From a virus, in IMG/VR virus record IMGVR_UViG_3300045988_089199, positions 1-64,000 of that record: a DNA stretch of 64,000 bases. One strand, given 5' to 3'. The position numbers and the translations under genes are program-made. This document shows positions 16,272-20,052 of this stretch, piece after piece. The notes under the pieces were generated by a model, which was given only the letters and a program-made list of their open reading frames with translations, searched no databases and had not been told where the DNA came from. The stretch's first letter is position 1. Each line of letters starts with the position of its first letter.

Positions 16272-16742
16272 TTAATCACATTTTATATAATAACCTTTAC
16301 CAAGTTTAATCCAATTGTCTACAGTGTGTCTACACACTCCCAATTTCTCTGCTGCTTCGGATTGACTCGCGTAATATTCTCCATTTATAACGCAAGGCTT
16401 ATAACCCGGAGTTGATAGCCCTGTTTTAAACGCATGTATATTATTGTATGATTGAGTACACCATTCCAAATTCTCAATCCGATTATTTGCTTTATTCCCA
16501 TCTATATGATTGATTATTGGTAATTTATTGGGATTAGGAATAAAAGCTTCTGCTACTAATCTATGCGCCTTATAATCTTTTCGCTTTCCTGTTACAGTAT
16601 CTCTTATATAATAATGTACATAACCATTCTTATCCCTACGAATATTTAATAATCTAAATCTTCTAACAAGGGATATTACAAATCCCCTGTTAGATATAAA
16701 ATACTTGTGATTAAATTCTAACCTATGATATTTTAATACCAT
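16272..16742 (-). CDS. free-standing HNH homing endonuclease
   Basis: HRLVAEAFIPNPNKLPIINHIDGNKANNRIENLEWCT plus a C-terminal HTH-like tail. Immediately downstream of nrdJ. Confidence 0.85.
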   Translation of the reverse strand: MVLKYHRLEFNHKYFISNRGFVISLVRRFRLLNIRRDKNGYVHYYIRDTVTGKRKDYKAHRLVAEAFIPNPNKLPIINHIDGNKANNRIENLEWCTQSYNNIHAFKTGLSTPGYKPCVINGEYYASQSEAAEKLGVCRHTVDNWIKLGKGYYIKCD

Positions 16743-16755
16743 ATAATCACCTTCC

Positions 16756-18201
16756 TTAACTACAACGACTATATCCGCATTCAGGACAACTATTACATCC
16801 TCCTGTAAAGTTTAATTTGCCTCCACATTCAGGACAAGTACTAACTTTTGTTTCCGGTTCTTCTAATTTTTCAAGTTTCATTTCAGCATGATCTGTAATA
16901 TATCTTTGGTTTAGTTCTAATAGTGCTTTACCTATAGCACTCGGACAACAATTACCAACACTTGTATCTTTTTTAGCATAAGTTCTAACAGTATAAGATG
17001 GACAAGCAGGTACACTTTTTAGTTGGTCAACTATCTCTTGAACTGTAGCACCTTTTTTCCCTGCTAATGATATTAATCTTGATAATCCTACCATAAAACT
17101 ATTACATCCACCTGTACTACCTTTGTCTAAGAATATATGACATAATTGACCAGTTTGCTTATGGAAATATACTGACATCCATAAACTACCACATCCTGTA
17201 GTTAATTGAGTGCCATATGCCACACAGTTATCAATTGAAGTATCACTTAATGGTATGTGTATAGGGTCTTTCACTGGTTGTTCTTTTGGTTTATCTACCA
17301 CTAATACACCTTCTTTTTTACATCCTGCTCTATAAATTGTTAACCCTTTGCATCCTTCTTCCCATGCGGCTTGATATAAATCTCTTATAGTTTCAACACT
17401 AGTATCATTAGTTACATTGACTGTACTACTTATACTAGCATCAATATATCTTTGCCATCTAGCTTGGATTGTAACTCTATCGAATGGATCTATATTTTGA
17501 GCAGTGGCTATATTATCCACTTTTCCTTCGTCTATTAAGTCCATATCAATCATCTTTTGTATTATTGGAGTATATACCTTGTAATATACATCTTCTCCGT
17601 GAAGTGATTCAGTTTTTCTTGTATAGTGTGTAGCAAATATTGGCTCTACACCTCCACTTACACCGAGCATAGTACTTATACTTCCAGTCGGTGCTATAGT
17701 GAATAATTGGCTATTTCTAAGTCCATATTGTTTTATCAATTCAATAGTATTACCTTCAATAACATTGTGGTTTCTTAATACTGTTATAAAATCACTTGAT
17801 AACAATAATTTTGAATCACATTGTGGAAAACATTCTGTCTCATTAGCTAATATCGCACTCTCTTTAAGTCCTGTATTAACTAATGTACTACCAACTGTAT
17901 GGATTAGATCCAAAGCACGTGCTGAGTCATATTGACAACTCATTTTTAATAACATATCAGCAAATCCCATTATACCAAGTCCTATTTGTCGCCAATCACG
18001 TACACTATTTCTTTGCTCTTCTAACGGGTGTAATTCTAATCCTTCATCTAATACATTGTTTAATGCTCTAATAGCTATTCTTACTGCACTTTTAAACTCT
18101 GGTATATTAAATGCTGCCTGTGGAGTAAATGGATTCTCTACGAATTCAGATAAATTTAATGCTCCTAATAAACAACTACCACCAGCTGGTAAAGGTTCTT
18201 C
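16756..18201 (-). CDS. nrdJ: class II (B12-dependent) ribonucleotide reductase, exon 3 of 3
   Basis: The frame is open from 18201 (EEPLPAGGSCLLGALNLSEF...), upstream of the track's M at 17970. Contains TIAPTGSIS and the C-terminal CPECG..CNSCPECG zinc ribbon. Confidence 0.8.
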   Translation of the reverse strand, partial: EEPLPAGGSCLLGALNLSEFVENPFTPQAAFNIPEFKSAVRIAIRALNNVLDEGLELHPLEEQRNSVRDWRQIGLGIMGFADMLLKMSCQYDSARALDLIHTVGSTLVNTGLKESAILANETECFPQCDSKLLLSSDFITVLRNHNVIEGNTIELIKQYGLRNSQLFTIAPTGSISTMLGVSGGVEPIFATHYTRKTESLHGEDVYYKVYTPIIQKMIDMDLIDEGKVDNIATAQNIDPFDRVTIQARWQRYIDASISSTVNVTNDTSVETIRDLYQAAWEEGCKGLTIYRAGCKKEGVLVVDKPKEQPVKDPIHIPLSDTSIDNCVAYGTQLTTGCGSLWMSVYFHKQTGQLCHIFLDKGSTGGCNSFMVGLSRLISLAGKKGATVQEIVDQLKSVPACPSYTVRTYAKKDTSVGNCCPSAIGKALLELNQRYITDHAEMKLEKLEEPETKVSTCPECGGKLNFTGGCNSCPECGYSRCS

Positions 18202-18474
18202 CAGTTTGTTATCGTAGAGGCTTTTTATCCTCTACCTCTTACAGTTTCCTGTAAGCTCGGCATATATTTTCACTCTTGCGAGTGTTGGGGGCTCGTGGAG
18301 GGATTATTGCTTTCATCTTAACGCTCACCCTCTATGCTCTACGGATAGTATTAGATATTACTACCCTCGGTATTACCATATCCTATTACAAGGACTTAGG
18401 CTCTCTTACCACCTTAGCCTTTCAGCTTGGTTGACCGATACACCCCAATTTTTTACTTGAGCCAACTAACCTCT
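18202..18474 (-). mobile_element. group I intron 2 (ORF-less, 273 nt)
   Basis: Interrupts NPCA|EEPLP. The 5' exon ends in T (GCT) and the insert ends in G (CTG). The segment is visibly GC-richer and more stem-rich than its flanks, and has stops in all frames. Confidence 0.7.
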
Positions 18475-18879
18475 AGCACAAGGGTTTACTCCTGCATATT
18501 CAAAGTTGTCAAAGTTATTTAATAAGTTATAACTTTTTATTGTATCCCAGTATAACATCCCCGGTTCAGCCCAGTCATAATTATTTTTAGCAATGTGGTC
18601 TAGTATATCGCCTCTATTTGCCATGTCCTCATCACTCATTTGTACTGAGATATTACATTTTTCTAGTTTGTTATCTAGTTTAGCATCGATAAAATCATGT
18701 ACATCAGGGTGACTACTATCTATACTAATCATTAATGCTCCACGACGTCCATTCTGACCAATAACTCTTGCAGTTTGTTCTAAAACATCCATAAATGATA
18801 CTGCGCCACTAGTTGTAAGGGCTGCATTGTGTACCGCTGCTCCTTTTGGTCTTAATGTACTAATATCAACACCACATCC
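18475..18879 (-). CDS. nrdJ: class II ribonucleotide reductase, exon 2 of 3
   Basis: The frame is open from 18879: GCGVDISTLRPKGAAV..SGAVSFMDV..GRRGALM..YAGVNPCA. It is in frame with track ORF 18466..18792. Confidence 0.8.
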
Positions 18880-19681
18880 CGTTTACACCCCTACTTTCGT
18901 AGTACTTTAACACATTTTATTTCAAATGTGGGACTAGACTATCTCTTCACCTTCAACTTCACTTGTTAAGGTGTCCTGCACTTCGAGTGGCAGCCTATCT
19001 TCCACCCTACTATTAGTCGTTACACTTTTCAATACTAACATTCCCGGTTTTATAAAAATGTCTTAAGCTCGATATACTAGAGCTATAATGTTTATTTGCA
19101 TATTCAGCAGCTTCTTTTATACTGTTAAACTCACCTACAATTTTATCATCAACTTTTAGTTTGCACTTAATATCTGTAGTATGGTTCCCTTTTCTCCCTA
19201 AGTGTGTATATGAATATCTAGTATTGTAAGCGGCTGTGCACCATTCTAAATTAGTAAAATGATTATTTTTAATGTTCCCATCCATATGATTTACTACCTC
19301 ATAATTATTAGGATTATTTAGAAATGCTTTAGCCACCAATTGATGGATTCTTCTAAAGTATCTACCTTATCATTTCTTAATCCTATGTATAAATAACCAT
19401 CCTTATCCAATTTAGGTTTCATGATTCTTAAATTCTTTTTACCATATACTTTATATATAGTTCCATATTCATTTATTATGTAATTTGGGAATTCTTCAAT
19501 TATTCTCCACATAATATCACCCCTATGTGGAAATGTTAGTATTAACTTAGCACGGTATTGTCCTCGACTTCACGTTAGGAGTTCCACCGTTAGCACGATT
19601 TCTCGTACACCCCTAGGCAATAGGGTTCACAGGATTATTTTCTATCTTATTTCTAAGATAGGGTGGCTAAACTTATTGTCT
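18880..19681 (-). mobile_element. group I intron 1 (802 nt) carrying an HNH endonuclease ORF
   Basis: Interrupts SYGG|GCGVDIS. The 5' exon ends in T (GGT) and the insert ends in G (AAACG). GC-rich structured flanks (19513..19681 and 18880..19012) surround the HNH ORF. Confidence 0.7.
19013..19512 (-). pseudogene. intron-encoded HNH homing endonuclease, disrupted by a 1-nt frameshift
   Basis: Two overlapping ORFs (19318..19512 and 19013..19339). Read together they give ..DKDGYLYIGLRNDK/GRYFRRIHQLVAKAFLNNP..VNHMDGNIKNN..NLEWCT, colinear with the intact HNH genes at 10494 and 16272. The frame changes near 19370. Confidence 0.6.
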
Positions 19682-19981
19682 ACCACCATAACTAAATGTA
19701 CGAGCTAACTTCATAGCAGCAGTATATATACCTTCAATACTATCTTCTGGGGGTGCTACTACATAACAGTTACTATAAGTTACTCCTCTATCTGTAATAC
19801 CTCTATTACTAAGTATTCTGCCACCAAATAAGAACTTCTTATCTACTATTAGTTGTGCCACTTGTTTATCTCCACCTGATACTCTATCTAGCCATTGGTC
19901 AAAACTTTCATCATTACGTTGATATTTTTTCTTCCAAATATCTTCTCCTAATTCACTTAATTTCCAATCTTTTAATTTCAT
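19682..19981 (-). CDS. nrdJ: class II ribonucleotide reductase, exon 1 of 3
   Basis: MKLKDWKLSELGEDIWKKKY...ARTFSYGG. The track ORF runs 4 codons (including the stop) into the intron. Confidence 0.75.
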
Positions 19982-20016
19982 ACAACTACCTCCTTTATTC
20001 TATTAAAAAGTCTTAC

Positions 20017-20052
20017 TATATATAGTATAGTAAGACCTCCCTATTTACTAAC
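20017..20052 (-). promoter_or_regulatory. class B promoter motif, copy 6, with the -10 box in a hairpin
   Basis: Minus strand reads GTTAGTAAATAGGGAGGTCTTACTATACTATATATAGTAAGAC. GTCTTACTATA/TATAGTAAGAC forms an 11-bp stem (20009..20035) followed by TTTTT. The sigma-gene stop TAG lies in the GTTAG box. Confidence 0.55.

Follow-up and report, generated by a model that had tools for sequence, protein, structure and literature searches.

The locus considered here raises the question of whether three coding pieces on the minus strand of a viral sequence make up one ribonucleotide reductase (RNR) gene restored by RNA splicing, or whether they are the remains of a gene, the parts of a divided enzyme or a product of assembly. 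It lies in a 64,000-nucleotide stretch of DNA (IMG/VR record IMGVR_UViG_3300045988_089199, positions 1 to 64,000; hereafter the window), and an earlier note had read it as a class II RNR gene split into three exons by two group I introns. We consider it very likely that this is the nrdJ gene of an uncultured AT-rich phage, interrupted by two mobile, spliced group I introns. Splicing, its autocatalysis, and the spread of the introns through homing driven by an endonuclease, with the adjoining exon sequence co-converted, are inferred.

The interrupted reductase gene

The coordinates of the three pieces (19981..19682, 18879..18475 and 18201..16756) were all verified, as were the gaps of 802 and 273 nt between them. 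Piece 1 ends in ..ARTFSYGG and, read through into insert 1, continues for RQ and a stop; piece 2 starts GCGVDIS.., ends ..YAGVNPCA and is followed by RG and a stop; piece 3 runs from EEPLPAGGSC.. to CPECG..CNSCPECGYSRCS and its stop codon. Joined, they form the predicted open reading frame (ORF) of 2151 nt (716 aa), TIAPTGSIS included, with these exons:

19682..19981, minus strand: nrdJ exon 1, codons 1-100, end ..SYGG, last base U of GGU (sequence, L001 alignment)
18475..18879, minus strand: nrdJ exon 2, codons 101-235, GCGVD..YAGVNPCA, last base U of GCU (sequence, L001 alignment)
16756..18201, minus strand: nrdJ exon 3, codons 236-716 and stop, EEPLPAGG.. (sequence, Pfam, L001 alignment)

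The class II identity is borne out by the spliced protein, which scores 418.9 bits on TIGR02504 (NrdJ_Z, the NCBIfam NrdJ equivalog model; cut-off 399.95) and 212 on the class I model TIGR02506, below its cut-off of 341. Its Pfam domains are Ribonuc_red_lgC and TSCPD, the latter C-terminal in the exon 3 product together with a Cys-rich tail. Of the relatives with a solved structure, Thermotoga maritima NrdJ matches best; in the alignment to this reference both junctions are crossed without gaps, and NPCxE and the N-terminal Cys motif match. Judged by its predicted product, the interrupted locus is a single class II RNR gene (nrdJ), which by class would be adenosylcobalamin-dependent. Both insertion sites fall in the most conserved regions of the enzyme: intron 1 sits between the Gly codons of SYGG|GCG, and intron 2 within the active-site motif NPCA|EE.

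The three-exon structure is upheld by more than 100 uninterrupted homologues of 712-716 aa (85-98% identity), many of which have 716 aa and are exactly colinear with the joined coding sequence. L001:3001-5151, the intronless allele of a relative with 98% identity, has neither insert; it aligns with the joined sequence at 2151 vs 2151 nt and zero gaps, and this base-for-base match therefore places the insert limits exactly at 19681..18880 and 18474..18202. Up to the junction, exon 1 matches L001:3001-3300 at 99% identity, and exon 3 is 97.6% identical to its counterpart, while exon 2 reaches only 92%, against 98-99% for the outer exons. Protein colinearity alone also permits a shift of -1 at each junction (GGG for GGT, GCG for GCT). 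The sites proposed earlier, with T as the last exon base at both (GGT| and GCT|) and G at the end of both inserts, are the sole choice that fits U(-1)/G(omega) plus P1 pairing. The remark that both inserts are richer in GC than their surroundings stands for intron 2 (42.9%, window 32%) and fails for intron 1 as a whole (33.2%), in which the ribozyme halves have 40.2% and 42.1% GC and the internal ORF 28.4%.

Ribozyme folds and an endonuclease gene

Each insert has a U.G pair at the 5' splice site in P1 and a terminal G, in keeping with the group I reading, and a group I core is detectable in both, with full P3-P9, a bulged P7, canonical helix order and compensatory changes. The terminal G of each intron aligns with the terminal G of its homologues. 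The folds were worked out on the window sequence itself, and their predicted elements are as follows:

18880..19681, minus strand: intron 1, group I of the T4 td type (IA2), 802 nt, start AGACAA, end ..GUAAACG, omega-G 18880
19662..19667, minus strand: intron 1 internal guide sequence GCCACC (P1), read from sequence
19630..19634, minus strand: intron 1 P3 5' strand UCCUG, partner CAGGA 18978..18974 (covariation)
19529..19545, minus strand: intron 1 P6a 5' strand, partner 19045..19029 (inverted-repeat search, MFE fold)
19013..19512, minus strand: intron 1 HNH homing-endonuclease gene (NUMOD4 + HNH_3 + NUMOD1-like) in the P6a loop (Pfam)
19014..19018, minus strand: intron 1 P7 5' strand GACUA (R element AACGACUA, bulged C; RF00028 alignment, family)
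18941..18937, minus strand: intron 1 P7 3' strand UAGUC (S element GAAGAGAUAGUCUAGUCC)
18202..18474, minus strand: intron 2, 273 nt, ORF-less group I, start AGAGGU, end ..CAAACUG, omega-G 18202
18456..18463, minus strand: intron 2 internal guide sequence GGCUCAAG, read from sequence
18448..18443 with 18290..18285, minus strand: intron 2 P3, UUGGGG with CCCCAA
18335..18339, minus strand: intron 2 P7 5' strand G[A]GCA, partner UGCC 18262..18259

The guide sequence of intron 1 pairs with exon 1 GGUGGU (19687..19682), leaving a U.G wobble at the splice site. Three of the five P3 pairs show compensatory changes among five family members (CUCGG/CCGAG, CUCAG/CUGAG), and P7 is invariant in the family and in T4 td and nrdB, its R and S elements aligning to the RF00028 consensus. 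P6a, of 17 bp including two G.U, spans the 483-nt ORF loop, and extra hairpins lie between P3 and P4. Standard pairing holds for 98.9% of pairs in these five sequences, and both partners have changed in 21 pairs; none of 500 shuffles was as good, and slid controls were 36-44% paired. The ORF-less form has an MFE z of -7.1. Several other pairings were discarded, namely CCACCCUA with UAGGGUGG as P3, which conflicts with P1 and the covarying P7.2, GGAC with GUCC as P7, and closure of the ORF loop by UUCCAC/GUGGAA.

Group IA2 introns are defined by P7.1 and P7.2 between P7 and P3', joined by G-U-A (PMC3428280). The order P7 - (P7.1) - GUA - P7.2 - P3' - P8 - J8/7 - P7' in intron 1 is that of td, and P7.1-GUA-P7.2 is present in Geobacillus virus E3, L082, L083 and T4 td, with GUA and P7.2 retained and P7.1 lost in intron 1. 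Model R2, for which the family of intron 1 was the only input and T4 td and nrdB were left out, gives intron 1 119.6 bits and detects T4 td (46.3 bits, E=4.5e-7), T4 nrdB (39.8 bits, E=9e-6), an insert in the Twort terminase (48.2 bits) and phage r1t (33 bits). The T4 record annotates both td and nrdB with group IA introns. Intron 1 would therefore seem to belong with the T4 td/nrdB-type IA2 introns, though without P7.1, and homology to annotated group I introns is seen for it with T4 td/nrdB and for intron 2 with the JCL1032 terminase intron, at 126 bits with model R1. BLAST matches of the introns include Twort, r1t and ROSA. A reading of the Twort match as orf142 was set aside: the match falls in the terminase gene, and orf142 is a tail-tube gene according to a 2025 paper.

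The P6a loop of intron 1 holds an endonuclease gene, an ORF absent from the earlier note. Its HNH_3, NUMOD4 and NUMOD1 matches are weak and below Pfam cut-offs. The gene is broken into overlapping ORFs (19512..19318 and 19339..19013) by a frameshift, one A lost near 19367-19369, and one added base restores a 166-aa ORF. In a related contig, L206, the ORF is intact (GATAAAGG vs GATAAGG in the window). The window gene reads as a pseudogene copy whose endonuclease is probably inactive, and because of the frameshift this copy of intron 1 is probably no longer mobile alone. Its final codons and stop overlap P6a', P6' and P7; the ORF of the Bacillus thuringiensis nrdF intron likewise begins in the P6a loop and spans P7 (PMC2248736).

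In intron 2 the guide sequence GGCUCAAG pairs with exon 2 CUUGUGCU (18482..18475) at seven of eight positions, again with U.G at the splice site. It is identical in L023, L030 and L004, and the insertion site is the same in all homologues, so P1 offers no covariation signal. P3 covaries in L030 and L004. Of 98 family members, 97 retain the G-C pair beside the P7 bulge, and covariation is seen at the three remaining P7 pairs; other P7 candidates (CGAGC etc.) were rejected, bulged G[A]GCA/UGCC being confirmed by a compensatory change in ROSA and by the family alignment. Among four same-site homologues 98.6% of pairs are standard, 16 are doubly changed and none of 500 shuffles did as well; the wider family, with 100 distinct sequences among its 110 hits, is 98% paired and has double changes in 27 of 28 pairs. 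The MFE fold recovers P3-P9.1 (z=-3.7), R1 gives 168.5 bits, and a single clear covarying P7.1-like hairpin lies between P7 and P3'. A close relative of intron 2, from a Clostridioides phage, has an HNH gene within the P5 loop. Intron 2 is a member of an intron family with at least 100 phage copies, among them the JCL1032 terminase intron. The alignments used for covariation have no more than 4-5 sequences or, for A4, were fitted to the model; P4 and P7 are invariant in the small alignments and hence show no covariation there, and P10 is weak in both (2-3 bp).

The check with Rfam RF00028 proposed earlier turned out negative, with no match at the gathering score (50 bits) in the whole window. 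When the introns were searched alone, the 3' part of intron 1 reached 17.8 bits (E=0.06), and intron 2 gave nothing with RF00028 at E<=10, only a chance miRNA match; Rfam at E<=10 on 3.8 kb returned only a chance snoRNA match. The RF00028 model does not encode the P3/P7 pseudoknot, and in a published survey its matches were only partial where an endonuclease loop splits the intron (PMC11878797). We treat the miss as a limit of sensitivity and not as the failure of a defining feature. Elsewhere in the window, neither motif scans nor models R1 and R2 brought up another intron, and no tRNA genes were found.

Proposed splicing and mobility, and rival readings

In the proposed pathway a single pre-mRNA would be transcribed, and each intron would fold as a group I ribozyme whose P1 presents the last exon U paired with a G of the guide sequence. 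Free guanosine held in the P7 pocket would attack 3' of the exon U, and the freed exon 3'-OH would then attack 3' of the terminal G of the intron, ligating the exons into the 716-aa reading frame. The predicted spliced junctions are GGU|GGA and GCU|GAA, i.e. ..UAUGGUGGU|GGAUGUGG.. and ..CCUUGUGCU|GAAGAACC...

It might be objected that mobile DNA in nrdJ is never removed from the RNA and that the pieces are pseudogene remnants, a reading to which the sub-threshold RF00028 scores of both inserts and the frameshifted endonuclease gene of insert 1 lend something. We regard it as very improbable, since the three exons are intact and in register, the ribozyme cores are complete with helices preserved by compensatory changes, and the ribozyme parts are conserved above the exons (98.8-100% against 86-90% identity between L206 and the window). 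A comparison of two intron-bearing alleles, sampled independently and different at 12% of exon bases, gives a dN/dS of 0.09, which shows that the interrupted gene is under purifying selection. Chimeric joins by a metagenome assembler would be a concern for a window that apparently comes from an uncultured phage, the more so as the exact intron 1 junction was missing from IMG/VR and from the first metagenome pattern search. Against them, the independent contig L206 carries the two inserts at matching positions of a gene that has diverged, and L023, L030 and two Clostridioides phage genomes have intron 2 at the same codon; this is the least credible of the explanations, with next to no chance of being right.

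Functional fragmented RNRs are known in phages, and the NrdA of Aeromonas phage Aeh1 is split by the endonuclease gene mobE (PMC3045599, in the account of it given in PMC3653736), so the HNH gene inside insert 1 could suggest that the pieces are separately translated and assemble into an active enzyme. Pieces 2 and 3, however, have no start codon at or near their first conserved residues (the first ATG lies 29 and 77 codons in, respectively), a break at NPCA|EE would sever the active-site motif, insert 2 lacks any ORF yet has a complete ribozyme fold, and the boundaries fit group I rules exactly. Separate translation is accordingly given very little weight, slightly less than a dead gene.

The distribution of the two elements fits the reading as mobile introns. 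Intron 1 was found at the same site in none of 73 related RNR loci, and among some 27 such loci intron 1 occurs in none and intron 2 in three. The exact junction pattern of intron 1 is absent from IMG/VR and JGI metagenomes, and a second, internal pattern matched one metagenome contig, L206 (OBSA01004240.1), with both introns at the same sites as in the window. In pCD1602_4, an RNR with only 42-51% protein identity is interrupted at the same codon, and the DNA of the intron there is 83-97% identical. Compared with relatives that lack introns, substitutions concentrate at both junctions. Patchy distribution, conservation of ribozymes above exons, clustered substitutions at the junctions and the low dN/dS together argue for mobile, spliced introns. 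A free-standing HNH endonuclease gene (16742..16272) lies directly after nrdJ and is missing from intronless relatives. That it mobilises intron 2, and perhaps the disabled intron 1, in trans is a speculative and rather unlikely suggestion; if true, nrdJ and its surroundings would form a cooperative homing cassette of three elements, with endonuclease and ribozyme apart ('collaborative homing').

Relatives and significance

Intron 1 shares with the T4 td and nrdB IA2 introns (with I-TevI and I-TevIII) the R element AACGACUA, the order P7 - P7.1/GUA/P7.2 - P3' - P8 - S element - P9, the P4-P6 sequence ACGG..GGAAC..CAAUACCGUGCUAA, an ORF in the P6a loop and a nucleotide-metabolism gene as host; with nrdB it also shares a defective HNH endonuclease gene. 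It differs in that its host is class II nrdJ and not td or class Ia nrdB, in the lack of P7.1 and in two added hairpins between P3 and P4, and the similarity is modest (40-46 bits with the model of the intron 1 family). Its closest full-length ORF-less relative is an insert in the tape-measure gene of Geobacillus virus E3, annotated merely as two TMP CDSs. This insert has the P3.1/P3.2 hairpins, P4-P6, P7.2, S element and P9 in common with intron 1, with compensatory changes in P2, P3, P3.2 and P8, but resides in another host gene, has P7.1 and contains no endonuclease gene.

Intron 2 has nearly its whole 3' domain in common with the terL intron of Lactobacillus delbrueckii phage JCL1032 and an insert of Staphylococcus phage ROSA, including the blocks GUAGAGCAUAG..CCACGAG, AAAAUAUAUGCCGA, GGAUAAAAAGCC and GAUAACA..UG. 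These score 126-138 bits with model R1 and share the opening bases AGAG and the P1 design, whereas the host gene and guide sequence are others and P5 and P8 differ in detail. RefSeq annotates the JCL1032 terminase CDS as a join, and the JCL1032 intron reportedly self-splices in vitro.

A parallel is offered by Firmicutes and their phages, which have group I introns in class I RNR genes (Twort nrdE, SPbeta bnrdE/bnrdF and nrdE/nrdF of the Bacillus cereus group). There are several introns in one gene, lying beside highly conserved functional residues, with HNH or GIY-YIG endonuclease genes, some degenerate, and introns and inteins occur in the same gene and patchily among close relatives (PMC3653736, PMC2248736, PMC2504315). 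The present locus is similar in these respects, but those host genes are class Ib/Ia and not class II. A 2013 survey of 128 phage genomes lists split nrdJ only in Thermus phage phiYS40 and Synechococcus phage P60, with ORFs 12 nt apart in the former and overlapping by 334 nt in the latter, neither being described as intron-bearing in the passages cited (PMC3653736).

For annotation, nrdJ should be called as one 716-aa three-exon gene and not as three fragments or a pseudogene, and the same holds for related contigs, including two unannotated Clostridioides phage genomes. At least one large phage intron family, with 100 or more distinct copies in IMG/VR, escapes the RF00028 gathering score in the window, and standard pipelines may therefore miss some of the phage genes that introns split. 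The locus supplies a clear example of a class II RNR gene with group I introns, and also a coincidence of intron and intein at the NPC motif of the active site; both agree with the established view of mobile elements as homing to the best-conserved codons in genes of nucleotide metabolism. The class II nrdJ of gut phages may be a so far uncatalogued hotspot, in which an intein and a group I intron would independently target the same NPC codons.

Composition of the interrupted nrdJ gene

The nrdJ gene of this uncultured phage lies in three minus-strand coding pieces at 19981..19682, 18879..18475 and 18201..16756, exactly as the earlier note had placed them, and the stops said to follow each motif fall two codons after ..ARTFSYGG (piece 1) and after ..YAGVNPCA (piece 2). 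Joined, the pieces give an ORF of 2151 nt (716 aa). Its proposed identity as a class II ribonucleotide reductase (RNR) stands: the product passes TIGR02504, the NCBIfam equivalog model for adenosylcobalamin-dependent ribonucleoside-diphosphate reductase (418.9 bits, cut-off 399.95), carries the Pfam domains Ribonuc_red_lgC and TSCPD, and scores under the class I RNR model's own cut-off. Alignment of the conceptually spliced protein to an NrdJ reference, a check suggested at the outset, reveals no misalignment at the junctions, as Thermotoga maritima NrdJ, the best solved relative, aligns without gaps over both (SYGGGCGVD with KVGGGVGSN; NPCAEEPLP with NPCGEIGLS). More than 100 intact homologues, 712-716 aa long and 85-98% identical, came up in a protein search. 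The nearest cultured RNR has only 47% identity.

The DNA of the closest uninterrupted homologue, L001 (a 69 kb ENA contig, 98% identical), served as the boundary reference. The two coding sequences, 2151 nt each, align base for base with zero gaps, and the gene therefore holds exactly two inserts, 19681..18880 (intron 1, 802 nt) and 18474..18202 (intron 2, 273 nt). Shifting both sites by one base (-1) keeps the protein colinear at either junction; only with the splice sites of the earlier note does a U stand just ahead of the 5' site and a G end the insert.

Structures and relatives of the two introns

It is very probable that both inserts are group I introns, with splicing itself predicted. 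The assignment, made earlier from sequence features, is borne out by the U before each 5' site, the terminal G and P3-P9 cores with compensatory changes. The proposed search with the Rfam group I model (RF00028) gave no match in the window at the gathering score. Intron 2 searched by itself against Rfam had no RF00028 match even at E<=10, and intron 1 alone was weakly matched in its 3' part (17.8 bits, E=0.06; R element AACGACUA, S element GAAGAGAUAGUCUAGUCC). Because Rfam gave little help, the structures below were derived by hand and then tested on homologues.

Proposed helices (minus strand; positions counted within each intron)
Intron 1
P1: exon GGUGGU with GCCACC (15-20), U.G at splice site
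P2: 21-27 with 34-40
P3: 48-52 with 704-708
Two extra hairpins: 57-60 with 68-71; 74-79 with 84-89
P4: 92-96 with 126-130
P5: 102-105 with 118-121
P6: 131-133 with 656-658
P6a, 17 bp, closing 483-nt ORF loop: 137-153 with 637-653; also found independently by repeat search
P7, bulged C: GACUA (664-668) with UAGUC (741-745)
P7.2, after GUA: 675-680 with 692-697
P8: 709-717 with 725-734
3' end: P9 hairpins, then omega-G at 802
Intron 2
P1: exon CUUGUGCU with GGCUCAAG (12-19)
P3: 27-32 with 185-190
P4: 37-41 with 104-108
P5: 44-47 with 97-100; also two side hairpins
P6: 109-116 with 125-132
P7: G[A]GCA (136-140) with UGCC (213-216)
P7.1-like hairpin: 143-147 with 173-177
P8, GCAA loop: 191-195 with 200-204
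P9, GAAA loop: 220-226 with 231-237
P9.1: 240-246 with 255-261
3' end: omega-G at 273

Intron 1 has relatives without the ORF: one divides the tape-measure gene of Geobacillus virus E3, and others lie in three IMG/VR contigs. Across five sequences, 98.9% of pair cells hold standard pairs and 21 pairs are changed on both sides, among them 3 of the 5 P3 pairs; none of 500 shuffles matched this, and pairing fell to 36-44% once the 3' partners were slid. With its ORF removed, the RNA has a folding z=-7.1, and folding it without constraints gives back P2, P3, the two extra hairpins, P4, P5, P6a, P7.2 and P8. A covariance model trained on nothing but the five 3' domains matched the T4 td (46.3 bits, E=4.5e-7) and nrdB (39.8 bits) introns, which the T4 record itself labels group IA, as well as a terminase-gene insert in Twort (48.2 bits) and a tape-measure-gene insert in phage r1t (33 bits). 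Set beside them, T4 td runs AACGACUA-UCCCuuugGGGA-GUA-GGGUCaaguGACUC-GAAAC-GAUAGA-P8-GAGAUAUAGUCU, and intron 1 and its relatives share this order of elements. Of the subgroup IA2 mark, GUA-linked P7.1 and P7.2 (PMC3428280), intron 1 keeps GUA and P7.2 and has lost P7.1. As P3.1 is a known optional group I pairing (PMC3873408), the hairpins after P3 are not a novel element type.

Two intron 1 family members lie in a different host gene (minus strands of L082:5703-5990 and L083:2526-2830), where no 5' splice site combining a preceding U, GUAGC guide pairing and a kept reading frame was found. Within intron 1, the guide-sequence region UUUAGCCACC is perfectly complementary over 10 nt to an endonuclease-ORF stretch, GGUGGCUAAA, which resembles the exon 1 end GGUGGU (window 19662-19671 and 19328-19337); this could be a rival P1-like pairing or mere chance (~0.3 expected in 802 nt).

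For intron 2, the unconstrained minimum free energy fold recovers nearly the whole hand structure (z=-3.7). Same-site homologues interrupt RNRs of 83-87% (L023) and 55-61% (L030) protein identity and those of Clostridioides phages pCD1602_4 and ES-S-0107-01 (42-51%). The four-sequence alignment has 98.6% of cells paired and 16 pairs changed on both sides (0/500 shuffles). The 3' 70 nt match 139 phage records, and a 3'-domain model to which the terminase intron of Lactobacillus delbrueckii phage JCL1032 and the insert of Staphylococcus phage ROSA were added finds 110 copies in 86 loci. In that family 98% of cells are paired, a value somewhat inflated by fitting the alignment to the model, with double changes in 27 of 28 pairs; slid controls (34-45% paired) mark the signal as specific. 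As the guanosine-binding pair should be, the P7 G-C adjoining the bulge is conserved (97 of 98 sequences). The JCL1032 terminase CDS is a join in RefSeq, and its intron shares with intron 2 the opening AGAG, the P1 design and the in-frame ..AUG| end. Up to four family copies lie within a few kb in IMG/VR loci L086-L165 (e.g. L147, L089, L110), a single tape-measure gene (L084) has one intron from each family, and many of the host records are annotated as two separate CDSs or 'none'.

Endonuclease genes, mobility and selection

The intron 1 ORF has NUMOD4, HNH_3 and NUMOD1-like segments (weak Pfam matches below the cut-offs), starting in the P6a loop and stopping in P7 (..AAC GAC UAA UAG), a layout like that of the B. 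thuringiensis nrdF intron (PMC2248736). In the window it occupies two overlapping frames, and one base added anywhere in intron positions 313-344 restores 166 aa. The second allele bearing both introns, L206 (metagenome contig OBSA01004240.1), has that extra base, reading GAUAAAGG (GATAAAGG as DNA) against GAUAAGG (GATAAGG) in the window, and its 166-aa ORF is intact; the A missing at ~19367-19369 (minus strand) could be a genuine inactivation or a homopolymer sequencing error. Translational masking has been described for other intron ORFs. A hairpin, CCACAU (19531..19526) with AUGUGG (19512..19507), minus strand, overlaps the P6a strand and contains a Shine-Dalgarno-like AGGGG and the endonuclease start codon, and by analogy may mask this gene.

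Intron 2 has no ORF; in the pCD1602_4 relative, positions 45-86 (P5 extension) are replaced by an HNH ORF. One further endonuclease gene follows nrdJ:

16272-16742, minus strand: free-standing HNH endonuclease gene, 156 aa (HNH_3, NUMOD4, HTH), directly after the nrdJ stop

This region (~16740..16284) is a third insert relative to L001, apparently a further homing element that has no intron. The adjacent final 50 nt of nrdJ are 80% identical to L001, against ~99% nearby.

In a tblastn split check of IMG/VR (73 loci returned), intron 1 was absent from all 27 closer RNR relatives and intron 2 was present in two. In L206 the two introns occupy the insertion sites seen in the window; its exons are 86-90% identical to those of the window, its ribozyme parts 98.8-100%. 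Substitutions against the intronless L001 and L009 concentrate in codons 80-120, mid exon 2, codon ~235 and the final 50 nt, and the P1-forming exon bases differ (GGUGGU and CUUGUGCU in the window, GGCGGA and CAUGCGCU in the intronless allele), a pattern that would fit co-conversion during homing.

Between the two intron-bearing alleles (exons 1 and 2) dN/dS is 0.09, so the interrupted gene is under purifying selection, which would require removal of the inserts from the RNA. A dead gene, with inserts left in the RNA and the pieces as pseudogene remnants, is very unlikely given this value, the intact exons and the maintained ribozymes. Still less probable is a split gene expressed as separate pieces, as in Aeh1 nrdA, since the piece boundaries lack start codons and one break falls within NPCxE. 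Least credible of all is an assembly artefact, the inserts being carried by independent contigs.

Neighbouring elements and wider context

In nrdJ relatives L020:4706-5395 and L022:693-1382 (also L064/L065), an in-frame intein of ~230 aa with an HNH-like motif sits just before the Cys of NPC (..GVNP[CVTGDT..VIHN]CAEEP..). Intron 2 is inserted two codons further downstream, so intron and intein target one active-site motif. A shorter in-frame insert occupies the intein position in more distant RNRs, and Pfam's intein domain PF14890 occurs in the 951-aa protein P0103. Mid exon 2 holds a mosaic patch (joined CDS 420-540, window ~18760-18640) with 78-93% identity to the otherwise near-identical L001 and L009 and 98% to L011, adjoining neither intron. 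A terminator-like element at 20005-20036 (minus strand) separates the upstream gene from the nrdJ ribosome-binding site: a perfect palindrome of 11 bp, GTCTTACTATA c TATATAGTAAGAC, with TTTTT after it. The terminator scan did not flag it, probably owing to its few G-C pairs.

Group I introns are classic in phage RNR genes, the most often interrupted phage genes (PMC3653736). It is also known that one gene may hold several introns, that HNH genes degenerate and that introns and inteins coincide. What is new is the host gene, a class II nrdJ from an uncultured phage lineage, and the occurrence in one gene of both td-type and JCL1032-type introns.
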